Part shown: piece after piece, positions 55,769 through 64,000 of the stretch
How the letters are laid out: the number at the start of each line of letters is the position of its first letter
How positions within the stretch are numbered: position 1 is the first letter of the stretch
DNA from: Escherichia coli
GTDB lineage: Bacteria; Pseudomonadota; Gammaproteobacteria; Enterobacterales; Enterobacteriaceae
Length of the DNA stretch: 64,000 nt
Strand: one strand, 5' to 3'
Assembly: GCF_003018255.1 (NCBI RefSeq)
Contig: NZ_CP027440.1
Notes under the pieces: generated by a model
The model's input: the letters and a program-made list of their open reading frames with translations, nothing else
The model's database searches: none
Told to the model about the DNA's origin: nothing
Made by a program: the position numbers and the translations under genes

Positions 55769-56545
55769 TCACCAGTCAAAACTTTTCACCAGCGTCAGCT
55801 CGCCAGCATTACGCATCGGTACAATAAATGTTTCCTGTTTCTCATTGACCGATCCTTCATCGGTGATCAGCGTCAGTTGGGCGGTCGTCAATTCCGTTTC
55901 GCTGCGTCCGCCATAGTAGTTGATATACACCTGATAACGTCCGTGAATCGGCGCTGGCATGGCGAAAATCTCGGGTCCGTACCCCGTCGTGACATCCATA
56001 TCCAGTGCACCACTGTTTTTCAGCACCGTGTTACCGTACCAGGCGTGTTCGCCATCGGGCGTGACAACATGGAGATCGAGATCGGTATTGTCCGTATCCC
56101 ACGAGAGAACCAGCCGTAAACGTGCACGAATCGTTCCTGTACCCGGCGTTGAGTAAAACTGCATTTTTTGCCGGCTTTGCCCATCCGGGCTGATGACCTG
56201 CACGCTGTTGCTGCCTTCCGTGAAAATATAAGGGCGTGCAAATGAACCATCGGATTCAATTCTCTGCGGCATACTGGCACCGTTGACCACCAGCCGGCCC
56301 TGCTGAACTTTACCCGCCGCAGCATAATTCTTTATTTTGCCGCGGATCTGCGCTGAGATATTTTGATCATCTGCCATGTTGACGGACGACGCCGGGTAAT
56401 TGATCGATTGTGAAAAACTGGCATCTTCACCCTCTGCCGGATGCCAGCCAGAGAGCGGTGCATCAATCTCGACTTCCTGCACACCTTCACTGTGAGCGAC
56501 AGGCGAAAGCGCCACCAGTAACAACGGAAGAAAAATCTTTCGCAT
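55769..56545 (-). CDS. yfaP: secreted protein of unknown function YfaP (DUF2135 as recalled)
   Basis: 258 aa; signal peptide MRKIFLPLLLVALSPVAHS; last gene of yfa cluster. Confidence 0.8.
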   Translation of the reverse strand: MRKIFLPLLLVALSPVAHSEGVQEVEIDAPLSGWHPAEGEDASFSQSINYPASSVNMADDQNISAQIRGKIKNYAAAGKVQQGRLVVNGASMPQRIESDGSFARPYIFTEGSNSVQVISPDGQSRQKMQFYSTPGTGTIRARLRLVLSWDTDNTDLDLHVVTPDGEHAWYGNTVLKNSGALDMDVTTGYGPEIFAMPAPIHGRYQVYINYYGGRSETELTTAQLTLITDEGSVNEKQETFIVPMRNAGELTLVKSFDW

Positions 56546-56549
56546 AGCA

Positions 56550-58199
56550 TTAGTCCATTAATAATTGTCGGGTAAGCGTTTCGATATAGTTCTCATCAAG
56601 CCCGGTGGGATAACCATCAAAGGCCAGGTGCAGATACTCATGGGTTAAATCCAGCCGATCCTGAAGCGTAAAGAAGTTACGAATAAACAGCCGTTTCTGC
56701 TGCCGATCGGTATAGGGGAAACCTGAGACTAAACGGCAAACCGCAAACACGTCTGGTTCGTTGTACCCCGTCTCACCTTGTAATATACGCCGCCACTGCG
56801 GCATTTTTTTCGCCAGCCAGGCTTTCGCTTTGGGTAATAACTGGCAGGTTGAGCGTGGCGCTCCCCAGCGGCTAAGGCTATTGTCGGGATAAGCAAACGC
56901 GAGTATCTGATCGTAACGCTCTCCCTGCCCCGCCTGGGCCGTGGCTTGCCGCCAGGAAAGCGTCCCTTCGGTAGCGCGACTGCCGTGATAATGAACCGGA
57001 TCGCCCGCATAGATAAGATCCTGCGTCCAGGCGGTCATCGTTCGCGCCCCCGTGGTAGCTGGCGAAGCAGAAACACGCTGCGTGGCGCTGCTGTCAGGGA
57101 TGGTCAGGCAATCGCCTTCCCGATTGGCGTTTTGCTGTAAAAAAGTGCGTATCGCCACGGTCATGGCTTTCGCTGCCTCAGGTGGCGTACTTTTCGCCTC
57201 ACGATCCAGAACTCTGGCAACGTACTCTTCACGATCGAGATGCGACTGCAATTTCAGTTTGCCCTTTTCGCTCAGTAAGGTCGTCTCACCGTGGCTGACA
57301 AACATAATGTGGTTACCATTGGCAAACGTCACACGATAGCGCCCATTAAGTACGCCGGGTTTTACTGCCGTCGAACTCTTTTCCGCCGTGATTTTCTTCA
57401 GCGGATAGCGGGCAAACAGCTCCACCAGGACACATTGCCCACTGGCAACTTGCGTCGGCACTGGCAAAACCCGATTAAGCACCGTCGCATAACGGGTCAG
57501 TACCGTTTTGCTGGTGCCACTGCCAGTCACCCACAGCGGTGTACCATCGGTTAACCAGCCGGCAAAACCACCCTGACGGATTTCCTGTTTATCATCGGCA
57601 AACCAGCTCCAGGTTTTCACCCGTACCCGACTGCCGAGCATGGATGCGACACCGATTTTCGCCTCGTCCAGCACCACATCCAGTAAGACTTCCTGAGCTT
57701 TGTTTTGCGCAGGTAACGTCGCTAATGAATCAAGCAGCGAGTTAACCGTTACCGAGGTTTCTGGCTTCAGCGTAGTAAGAGACGCTAACCACGCAGGTGC
57801 CTGACGCTGTTGCCAATATTGCCCCCACACATCTGCGCCAATATGCAACCGCTGCGGCGCAAAATAGAGCCCACAGGAACGTACCAGCGCGGTATCGCGC
57901 GTTATACTCTCCCCAGCCTGACAACAATAAACCTCTTCCGGGGAGTTTCCGCGACACTGGTAGGGCTGCTCCGGTTGATGGGTATCCTCCAGCCAGGCGT
58001 AAACATACAGTTTCCACAAACTCCCTAACGGCGTGGTGAGCGTGTCAGGTAATGCCGAGACTTTGGTCACGCCTGATGACGACAGCTGATACAGTTGATC
58101 GTGCTGCGCACCGCGCAGCACCAGTTGTAACGGCGTCTCCTCCGCAAGCGTTGGCAGAGTAACCAACGCCAATAGCCAGACGATTCTGCGCCAGTTCAC
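56550..58199 (-). CDS. yfaQ: secreted protein of unknown function YfaQ (DUF2300 as recalled)
   Basis: 549 aa; signal peptide MNWRRIVWLLALVTLPTLA; start abuts yfaS stop. Confidence 0.8.
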   Translation of the reverse strand: MNWRRIVWLLALVTLPTLAEETPLQLVLRGAQHDQLYQLSSSGVTKVSALPDTLTTPLGSLWKLYVYAWLEDTHQPEQPYQCRGNSPEEVYCCQAGESITRDTALVRSCGLYFAPQRLHIGADVWGQYWQQRQAPAWLASLTTLKPETSVTVNSLLDSLATLPAQNKAQEVLLDVVLDEAKIGVASMLGSRVRVKTWSWFADDKQEIRQGGFAGWLTDGTPLWVTGSGTSKTVLTRYATVLNRVLPVPTQVASGQCVLVELFARYPLKKITAEKSSTAVKPGVLNGRYRVTFANGNHIMFVSHGETTLLSEKGKLKLQSHLDREEYVARVLDREAKSTPPEAAKAMTVAIRTFLQQNANREGDCLTIPDSSATQRVSASPATTGARTMTAWTQDLIYAGDPVHYHGSRATEGTLSWRQATAQAGQGERYDQILAFAYPDNSLSRWGAPRSTCQLLPKAKAWLAKKMPQWRRILQGETGYNEPDVFAVCRLVSGFPYTDRQQKRLFIRNFFTLQDRLDLTHEYLHLAFDGYPTGLDENYIETLTRQLLMD

Positions 58200-62819: not shown

Positions 62820-63361
62820 GTCATAAGTTGTTGCAGACTGACTGCGCGCATTCCGTTGTCAGTTTTCGTGGCGCTTCCGGTGTGGTAGATGACGTAACGC
62901 CCCATCCAGACCATTAAGTGCTGGGCATCGCCCTGATCGAAAAAAATCATATCGCCAGGCAGCGCCTGGTTTATGTCCTGGCCAATAAATTGGCTGTTGT
63001 ACTGAATCAAATTAATTGCGGTCACGTAGGGGCCGGTTTTCCCGTTCCCCTGATTCCAGTTTTGCGCCAGTTGCCGCTGTTCAGGTGTTAGCGTCATCTC
63101 TGGCGGCAAATACTGGTTAGATAACCCGTTACTTTTTAGCCATTTACTGTCGTGAACTTTCAGCGTCTCGTTCGCTGCAAATCGCACCAGGCCCGCACAA
63201 TCCTGCTGATACCAGCGTGGACTTGGACCCTGGCGGAGCTGTTCCTGTGCAATGCGTACAAACCAGGCGCGAAACAGCCCGGATTGTTCGACATTCAGCA
63301 TTTCGCTATGGGTAACAACACAACACAGCCAGCAAATCAGCGCCAGCAGCCCGTGTCTCAT
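62738..63361 (-). CDS. yfaT: secreted protein of unknown function YfaT (DUF1175 as recalled)
   Basis: ORF track 62738-63388; ATG at 63361 ([16 protein letters not shown]) gives 207 aa and forms an ATGA overlap with the yfaA stop. Confidence 0.8.
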
Positions 63362-64000
63362 AGCGGTTGCCAGGTTATGGGTAGCCACTGCCAGGCGGCA
63401 CCGGGTTCCATCTGGGCCAGCTTCATGACATAACGCGGTTGTTGAGATAAAGCGTCCAGCTTCGGCATTAATAAAGTTTGTGCGGCGTTATAAAAAACCG
63501 GTTCGAGATTCTTCGGCAAACTGGTCAGCGTTTCGTTACGCAGCAGTTTCGCCACGCCTTGTGGATTGATATAGAGCGGAACGATGCCGTCAGTGGGTAT
63601 CACATCCACCATTGCCGGGCGGGTTTTATTCAGTGTTTGCAGCGCGTTATTAACCAGCGTGTCATCGAGGGAGAAAAGCATCGTCTTGTTTTGCATCGCC
63701 AGCGACACGCGGAAAAAATAATCCGACATTAATTGATCGGGTTGCACCGCCTGCGCTTTCGGATACTGGCCGTATCGGGAACTCACTTCGCGACGCCAGA
63801 TTTGCGCTTCGCCCTGCTGAGTCTGGTTTACCGGCAAAACACCTTCTGGCGCTTTGCTTTCGTGCGCACCAATATTTTGCGTAAACAGTTTCCCAGGCAG
63901 TTGTGCCTGTTCGGCTGAGCCATCAAATTGACCAACAAATAGCGGGGTTTGTAATTTTGAGTCTTCATACCAGCACAGCCCGGCTGCACCATCTAACGCC
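63358..64000 (-). CDS. yfaA: protein of unknown function YfaA (DUF2138 as recalled), 3' part only
   Basis: Reading frame is open from 63358 to the window edge with no in-frame stop upstream of the TTG listed by the ORF track; gene start lies beyond position 64000. Confidence 0.75.

Follow-up and report, generated by a model that had tools for sequence, protein, structure and literature searches.

A 64,000-nucleotide stretch of the Escherichia coli contig NZ_CP027440.1 (assembly GCF_003018255.1; hereafter the window) ends in five minus-strand genes, yfaA (3' part only), yfaT, yfaS, yfaQ and yfaP, which occupy positions 55769-64000 and, judging from the open reading frames (ORFs) and the RefSeq annotation of a 99.8%-identical genome, are tightly coupled (Table 1). 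The record of that genome is collinear with the window from yeiR to yfaA, and in L001 the full-length YfaA has 562 aa. A preliminary description of the window had listed five coupled minus-strand ORFs, and each of the junctions that it named was seen when we read the sequence: the TGA of yfaA shares ATGA with the ATG of yfaT, the GTG of yfaQ directly abuts the TAA of yfaS, and four nucleotides (TGCT) lie between the TAA of yfaQ and the ATG of yfaP. In addition, yfaT and yfaS overlap by 67 nt. We read these genes, with a probability of roughly two in three, as the E. coli five-gene version of the Mag system of Pseudomonas aeruginosa (magB-magC-magD-magE-magF, without magA), in which a periplasmic complex anchored in the inner membrane is organised around a type II alpha-2-macroglobulin (A2M).

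The orthology of the yfa genes with the P. aeruginosa mag genes, which carries this reading, is firm at the level of sequence. Pfam assigned YfaA to DUF2138, YfaT to DUF1175 with a weak NlpC/P60 match (NLPC_P60, E 0.0016), YfaQ to DUF2300 plus SpoIID and YfaP to DUF2135. YfaS proved to be the bacterial A2M that it had been taken for, with the domains MG2 (residues 344-440, E 5.6e-19), A2M_BRD (661-806, 2.3e-17), A2M (871-953, 5.6e-12) and bMG10 (1409-1517, 2.1e-5). YfaT matched the sequence of the MagC crystal structure from P. aeruginosa (PDB 7BK8) at E 5.6e-104; the Mag proteins, and not YfhM/ECAM as the preliminary description had supposed, are the closest studied reference. The family assignments of the yfa proteins agree with the COGs that Table 2 of PMC3735191 lists for MagA-F. 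None of the five proteins matched a PADLOC model of known anti-phage defence.

Synteny was surveyed by a scan with YfaT, limited to one genome per species, which gave 216 confirmed relatives; 80 loci were kept, from Escherichia, Superficieibacter, Enterobacillus, Yersinia alsatica, Edaphovirga and many Pseudomonas. The order YfaA-YfaT-YfaS-YfaQ-YfaP on one strand was seen in every sufficiently long locus among the 80, and metagenomic relatives of YfaQ at 27-30% identity have the same neighbours in the same order (DUF2138, MagC, A2M, YfaQ, then YfaP in one or two copies). The five families thus occur as a set, and the co-conservation of the partners with yfaS-type A2M genes, proposed earlier as a check, is borne out. 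Identities between E. coli and Pseudomonas were ~43-48% for YfaA, 69-78% for YfaT, 51-55% for YfaS, 51-57% for YfaQ and 49-58% for YfaP. YfaT/MagC is thus far ahead of its operon partners (43-58%) in conservation between the two genera; in Escherichia its gene is partly dual-coding at the 3' end with the 5' end of yfaS, though over just 22 codons.

Besides gene families and gene order, the E. coli operon shares with P. aeruginosa magABCDEF the tight coupling of the genes, an A2M with neither CxEQ nor a convincing lipobox, and an anchor protein with one N-terminal transmembrane helix. The two systems differ in gene number. Pseudomonas loci that reach far enough carry MagA, a second YfaP-like gene upstream at 37-45% identity, whereas no second YfaP match was found in the Escherichia, Superficieibacter, Enterobacillus, Yersinia or Edaphovirga loci of the 80-locus set. 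Because gyrA adjoins yfaA upstream and these Enterobacterales loci lack the second match, we regard the E. coli operon as a five-gene variant, a form shared with the other sampled Enterobacterales. The E. coli and P. aeruginosa systems also differ in the thioester site of the macroglobulin and in the start of yfaS, which lies 67 nt further upstream in E. coli, within yfaT. In two Pseudomonas loci, L071 (P. capsici) and L078 (P. bohemica), the upstream MagA-like gene is kept and no MagF-like gene was detectable downstream of the YfaQ homologue.

Table 1. Genes and sequence features of the yfa operon in the window.
Feature	Position	Strand	Description
yfaP	55769-56545	minus	258 aa; MagF orthologue; signal peptide and C-terminal DUF2135/YfaP_C
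yfaQ	56550-58199	minus	549 aa; GTG start; MagE orthologue; signal peptide, 8 conserved cysteines
yfaS	58200-62804	minus	1534 aa, intact in the window; type II (thioester-less) alpha-2-macroglobulin; MagD orthologue
yfaT	62738-63361	minus	207 aa; DUF1175, NlpC/P60-like; MagC orthologue
yfaA	63358-64000	minus	last 214 codons, start beyond the window end; MagB orthologue, DUF2138
Bidirectional intrinsic terminator hairpin	55696..55740	both	15-bp stem, GAAA loop, A-run upstream, T-run downstream
YfaQ N-terminal domain	57450..58136	minus	~aa 22-250 (limits approximate); serine beta-lactamase/penicillin-binding-protein-like fold
YfaQ central SpoIID-like domain	56865..57266	minus	~aa 312-445 (limits approximate)
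YfaQ C-terminal module	56553..56852	minus	~100 aa; candidate minimal zincin metallopeptidase domain
YfaQ HExxH	56628-56642	minus	H520-E521-x-x-H524; invariant, on a helix
Likely yfaS translation start	62802..62817	minus	GGAAGGA (62811-62817), 6-nt spacer, ATG (62802-62804); 67 nt inside the yfaT 3' end
Degenerate thioester site of YfaS	59589..59600	minus	aa 1069-1072, G-V-I-N; C-V-E-Q in thioester-bearing orthologues
Bait-like linker of YfaS	60207..60290	minus	aa 839-866, between A2M_BRD and A2M

A system of this kind is already known: the biochemistry of the orthologous complex has been worked on, and a phenotype has now been found for it. Recognition of the operon and of its type II macroglobulin goes back to the first survey of bacterial A2Ms (PMC5764988). 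In P. aeruginosa, magABCDEF (PA4492-PA4487) specifies an inner-membrane complex of MagA, MagB, MagD and MagF, in which MagB carries a membrane helix and MagA and MagF are paralogues (PMC3735191). MagD traps a protease independently of a thioester and binds MagA, MagB and MagF 1:1; when given an engineered bait it traps TEV protease in vitro (PMC5764988). MagB is required both for the anchoring of MagD and for its cleavage from 165 to 100 kDa, cleavage to 100 kDa in vivo depends on operon-encoded partners, and the forms of MagD are altered in a magE mutant (PMC5764988). A CRISPR interference screen of 2025 showed that the mag operon protects P. aeruginosa from the peptidoglycan-targeting type VI effectors VgrG3 and Tae1, to which loss of magD confers sensitivity (PMC12663445). 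E. coli itself carries both forms of A2M (PMC5764988).

Against this literature, the preliminary description was essentially right in proposing a periplasmic or envelope multiprotein module with a protease-trapping or envelope-protecting function, which is published for the orthologous mag operon (PMC3735191, PMC5764988, PMC12663445), and the test against type VI effectors that it suggested has in effect been published for the orthologue (PMC12663445). It went astray in holding that the four partners have no experimental role: there are binding data for MagA, MagB and MagF, and a crystal structure for MagC (PDB 7BK8). The operon is, given the Mag literature, less under-described than was claimed; what stands of that claim is that no functional work on the yfa genes in E. 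coli was found in the literature searched. Nor did we find there the domain reading of YfaQ/MagE, the series of thioester sites within this operon type, the conserved linker of the macroglobulin or the problem of the yfaS start codon, all of which are described below.

The published phenotypes bear on the original idea for bacterial A2Ms, in which the complex would be a host-directed colonisation factor that mainly neutralises host proteases such as neutrophil elastase, or antimicrobial peptides, reaching the periplasm. Neutrophil elastase changes the conformation of MagD, and magB, magD and magE transposon mutants show attenuation in chronic infection of rats (PMC3735191); the closest relatives of the window are also human isolates. 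However, the operon occurs most widely among pseudomonads of soil and plants and among environmental Enterobacterales, the sole clean loss-of-function phenotype so far is interbacterial (PMC12663445), and the macroglobulin linker, being conserved, is ill-suited to recognising many host proteases. We consider a mainly host-directed role improbable. More broadly, bacterial macroglobulin complexes provide general, non-cognate immunity of the envelope; the orthologous operon of P. aeruginosa both protects from the wall-degrading type VI toxins of competitors and contributes to chronic infection.

The proteins themselves have the export features expected of an envelope complex. The N-termini of YfaT, YfaS, YfaQ and YfaP are signal-peptide-like by composition, as had been noted; that of YfaP reads MRKIFLPLLLVALSPVAHS/E and that of YfaQ MNWRRIVWLLALVTLPTLA/E. 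YfaA begins with a basic N-terminus (KKAK..R) followed by one transmembrane helix at aa 13-31 (mean hydropathy 1.94), which is not a cleavable signal; a helix is found at 16-32 in its AlphaFold2 model, and this N-terminal anchor matches that of MagB. The remainder of the YfaA model (pLDDT 77.8) gave only weak matches, to small periplasmic alpha/beta folds, and we describe YfaA as a membrane-anchored scaffold and assign nothing beyond this. YfaT keeps the NlpC/P60 contexts of Cys54 (D53-C54-A-G-L-V) and His147 (Q-H147-L-M-V-W-M-G), both identical in MagC, and is predicted to be an NlpC/P60-like peptidoglycan binder. YfaP had no recognisable relative among known structures; its C-terminal motif is invariant (W149, D157, H159, T162, P163, G165, H167, D182, G188, G190, P191).

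The N-terminus of YfaS has a hydrophobic core at aa 18-36 that ends in ANA/DD. Cys25 sits in I-A-A-C inside the signal peptide, but because the hydrophobic core runs on past it, a signal peptidase I site is likelier than a lipoprotein anchor. Translation of yfaS likely begins at ATG 62804, which is the only start yielding a signal peptide and is the start in the curated K-12 record; the RefSeq/PGAP start at GTG 62714 removes the signal peptide. Most Pseudomonas orthologues have an ATG that shares ATGA with the stop of magC, and from it an ordinary signal peptide of ~20 residues results. The aligned codon position encodes isoleucine in Escherichia and Superficieibacter (ATA in the window), so initiation in Escherichia must have moved upstream, and the shifted start gives a signal peptide of 38 aa.

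No CxEQ motif occurs in the whole 1534-aa YfaS, whose only cysteines are at 25 and 1189, and this places it among the type II A2Ms; the Pfam TED model gave no match in the protein either. At the canonical thioester position YfaS reads P-W-G-G-V-I-N-T. We compared this site in 79 sequences, YfaS and 78 orthologues. GGVEQT was the most frequent form (55/79, most Pseudomonas orthologues), followed by GCVEQT (10/79), GGV[I/V]NT (9/79, all from Enterobacterales), CGVEQT and GSVEQT (2/79 each) and GGVEHT (1/79). In each of the four distant metagenomic loci the macroglobulin gene upstream of yfaQ, complete or partial, encodes CVEQ or CIEQ, and in L084, the one complete gene among them, the motif aligns with the canonical thioester site. 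Thus the operon type is not uniformly thioester-less, as GCVEQ is kept in 10/79 sequences and CVEQ or CIEQ in the four distant loci (the loci with the retained Cys motif are L010, L012, L023, L024, L034, L037, L046, L050, L062, L066 and L083-L086). The motif appears to have decayed stepwise, from GCVEQ through GGVEQ to GGVIN, the E. coli form being the most degenerate; the direction of this series is taken from the distant loci and not from a tree.

The bait-like linker of YfaS is conserved above the average of the protein, and part of it persists even where overall identity falls to 35%; conservation is lowest in the TED-like region (aa 950-1400). This pattern is the opposite of what is expected for a broad-spectrum protease decoy. 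Cleavage within the linker would give fragments of ~90 and 76 kDa, near the 91 and 74 kDa of bait-cleaved MagD (PMC5764988). Eukaryotic A2M and complement C3/C5 share with YfaS the superfamily of MG domains and a bait cleavage followed by conformational change; YfaS differs from them in lacking the thioester, in having a linker that is conserved and not hypervariable next to a poorly conserved TED-like region, and in the 1:1 stoichiometry with partners seen for the Pseudomonas orthologue. With YfaS as query, a phmmer search of the PDB yielded just complement C5 and CD109 (E ~1e-3), and no bacterial A2M came up at E ≤ 0.01. The type I A2Ms (E. coli YfhM/ECAM and Salmonella SaA2M, paired with the penicillin-binding protein PBP1c) have in common with YfaS the MG2, bait-region, A2M and bacterial MG10 domains; both kinds are periplasmic and genetically linked to a partner that acts on peptidoglycan. 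Sequence similarity to them is nevertheless very low, and YfaS differs in having neither a thioester nor a convincing lipoprotein anchor, in the absence of a neighbouring pbpC (the neighbours are atoB and gyrA) and in being anchored by a separate membrane protein.

YfaQ belongs to a small family (395 cluster representatives of 1.84 billion at E ≤ 1e-3), in which 44 positions are at least 93% conserved among 64 full-length representatives with identities down to 28%. These include G59, S60, W62, K63, S108, C109, K195, T196, Y326, R329, V330, R333, E334, H520, E521, H524 and the eight cysteines. Comparison of the predicted structure, not of sequence alone, matched YfaQ to SpoIID and to penicillin-binding proteins (PBPs) and beta-lactamases. 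The N-terminal domain has the motifs G59-S60-x-x-K63 (S60-L-W-K63), S108-C109-G and K195-T196; in the family profile the first two align with SxxK (SVFK) and S-C-N of C. difficile PBP3, at an E value of only 0.088, and at the KTG position K195-T196 is invariant while the third residue is W or F instead of G. The central domain contains the conserved glutamate of the YxxGVVxxEM motif, R333-E334 aligning with the Glu of the SpoIID SEM/GEM motif (4rwr, E 4e-4), which we take to be the catalytic residue; Y326, R329, V330, R333 and E334 are invariant. This SpoIID part is incomplete, with TIGR02669 scoring 18.1 bits against a cut-off of 83.3 over model positions 5-54 of 270 and Pfam covering 65/97 model positions. 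From the SpoIID/LytB lytic transglycosylases (B. anthracis 4rwr, C. difficile 5i1t), YfaQ differs in that only ~135 of roughly 270 residues are matched in the structural alignment and in having no sporulation or amidase-partner context. Pfam and EcoCyc label YfaQ a "tandem DUF2300"; we rejected this, as the two segments are non-homologous by profile-profile and pairwise comparison and differ in fold, the first being PBP/beta-lactamase-like and the second SpoIID-like with the HExxH module added.

The last 100 residues of YfaQ form a helix, three short strands, the HExxH helix and a helix with E536 and E540, an order compatible with a zincin. HExxH is invariant in 63/63 representatives, down to the same 28% identity; for the third zinc ligand the candidates include H530, which is Tyr in E. 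coli, besides E536 and E540. The sole sequence match of this module in the PDB was the 110-aa MJ1213 (E 0.21, HEYLH over HELLH), presumably a minimal metallopeptidase (selecase), although the PDB record calls it an uncharacterized protein. We conclude that YfaQ consists of a signal peptide, a PBP/beta-lactamase-like domain and a truncated SpoIID-like domain, both domain assignments being well supported, and of a C-terminal module for which a minimal zincin is a candidate that the evidence only suggests. Any of the three modules may be non-catalytic because the KTG glycine is replaced, the SpoIID domain is about half-length and the zincin is a motif plus a match at E 0.21.

The working model would then run as follows. 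As in the Pseudomonas orthologues, the A2M would be exported and then retained at the inner membrane with YfaA/MagB as its anchor, would bind YfaP-type beta-rich proteins 1:1 and be stabilised by them, and would be able, after cleavage near the bait linker, to cage a protease non-covalently; the complex would protect the cell from peptidoglycan-degrading effectors. To this we add that the partners may tie the trap to the cell wall, the complex being coupled to peptidoglycan through YfaT and through YfaQ's PBP-like and SpoIID-like modules. It would therefore be seated on damaged peptidoglycan, or detect it, and would neutralise hydrolases on their entry into the periplasm. Such a coupling would parallel the pairing of type I A2Ms with the peptidoglycan synthase PBP1c. 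With the domain assignments of YfaQ/MagE, the orthologues that keep the thioester and the conserved linker, the link between a thioester-less macroglobulin and peptidoglycan becomes more testable.

Several points weigh against this model. The complex and its protective role are transferred from Pseudomonas to E. coli. MagE was found in the cytoplasmic fraction of P. aeruginosa and forms no stable complex with MagD (PMC3735191, PMC5764988), which sits badly with a periplasmic, wall-directed role; the eight conserved cysteines and the signal peptide of YfaQ argue for a periplasmic location, in conflict with that fractionation. VgrG3 is a glycosidase and not a protease, and caging after bait cleavage would not by itself explain protection from it. 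A bait that is conserved speaks more for a dedicated cleavage, possibly an endogenous one, than for a decoy of broad spectrum. Finally, the operon is damaged in some E. coli. K-12 MG1655 yfaS (L087, 3799-8403) is a pseudogene with a nonsense codon at 1368, differing from the window by 141 substitutions and no indel, and other E. coli have alleles in which a DUF2138-DUF2300 protein joins yfaA to yfaQ or an MG2-SpoIID/DUF2300 protein joins the 5' end of yfaS to yfaQ; these predicted fusion proteins (P0011, P0043, P0135, P0136 and P0182) imply internal deletions of the operon.

The main rival is a machine for cell-wall maintenance or damage response that is not a protease trap. Its enzymatic core would be YfaQ and YfaT, the macroglobulin would be a large scaffold or latch whose conserved linker is cut by an endogenous protease dedicated to it (YfaQ's HExxH module is a possibility), and protection would come from repair or shielding of peptidoglycan. 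The invariance of S60/K63, S108, K195/T196, E334 and H520/E521/H524, the folds matched by YfaQ, the contrast between linker and TED-like region in YfaS and the repeated loss of the thioester while the operon is kept are all consistent with such a machine, as are the need for operon partners in the cleavage of MagD, its altered forms in the magE mutant (PMC5764988) and a phenotype specific to peptidoglycan-targeting effectors (PMC12663445). Against it stand the trapping of TEV protease by engineered-bait MagD (PMC5764988) and the reported cytoplasmic location of MagE and its lack of stable binding to MagD; the modules of YfaQ may be non-catalytic for the reasons given above, and in a later classification (PMC10318531) the DUF1175 family is classed, with reference to the 2021 MagC paper, as peptidoglycan-binding and inactive on peptidoglycan. 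On balance we think a wall machine without a trap unlikely.

A still more speculative proposal, which we put forward only tentatively and think doubtful, makes YfaQ/MagE the regulated enzymatic heart of the system. YfaQ would be periplasmic, with three modules and disulfide bonds. Its PBP/beta-lactamase-like and SpoIID-like domains would register the condition of the peptidoglycan (stem peptides or glycan strands that have been cut), and the invariant HExxH module would then activate the complex by cutting the macroglobulin at its conserved linker; operons with and without the thioester would be successive evolutionary states. The sense-and-cleave logic, applied to cell-wall damage, would resemble that of BlaR1/MecR1, in which a zinc metalloprotease domain is combined with a class D beta-lactamase-like sensor. 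YfaQ resembles these proteins in architecture only and is not a member of their family: the order of its domains is reversed, an extra SpoIID-like domain lies between the modules, the protein is soluble with a signal peptide and not polytopic, and no significant sequence similarity was found.

The damaged alleles raise another question, namely whether the operon is a decaying remnant in E. coli that is kept by inertia and has no present function. The nonsense codon in K-12 yfaS, the fusion alleles, a thioester site more degenerate than in any other orthologue and the replacement of the ATGA-coupled Pseudomonas start of yfaS by ATA in Escherichia could all be signs of decay. However, every ORF is intact in the window, the coupling junctions are preserved, and E. 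coli YfaQ and YfaT have kept every one of the conserved residues of catalytic type. Moreover, a 9-kb query (bases 55000-64000) matched 5422 of 5426 complete E. coli genomes, with a best identity of 99.8%, and at least 80% of it is present in 5181 of them. The DNA here is unremarkable E. coli chromosome. A match in 5422 genomes means that the operon is no chance feature, and we give the idea of a functionless remnant hardly any credence. The operon is nearly universal in E. coli, but the broken yfaS of the laboratory strain K-12 may explain why the Mag system has been overlooked in this species.

Downstream, the operon is convergent with atoB, and the stops of atoB (55695) and yfaP (55769) are separated by a 73-nt spacer with the bidirectional terminator that the preliminary description had seen as common to both. 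The 15-bp hairpin has a folding free energy of -26.1 kcal/mol on the plus strand (z -4.8) and -25.3 kcal/mol on the minus strand (z -3.7), none of 200 shuffles folded equally well, and a U-run follows on either side; a simple terminator scan of the window did not list this hairpin. The neighbours, atoB downstream and gyrA directly upstream of yfaA, were identified from the RefSeq annotation of the 99.8%-identical genome.

Another periplasmic protease inhibitor, ecotin, is encoded by eco at 32938-33447 on the plus strand, ~22 kb from the yfa operon; in the window annotation the intervening genes are unrelated and give no sign of a functional link. Upstream of yfaA and outside the window, two terminator-like hairpins follow the gyrA stop (L001 18048-18195, minus strand). 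In the same record, and from sequence alone, the Shine-Dalgarno region of yfaA lies within CACAAGGAAUGUG, where GGA lies in the loop of a short hairpin resembling a CsrA/RsmA binding site. The leader of magA is a known RsmA target in P. aeruginosa.

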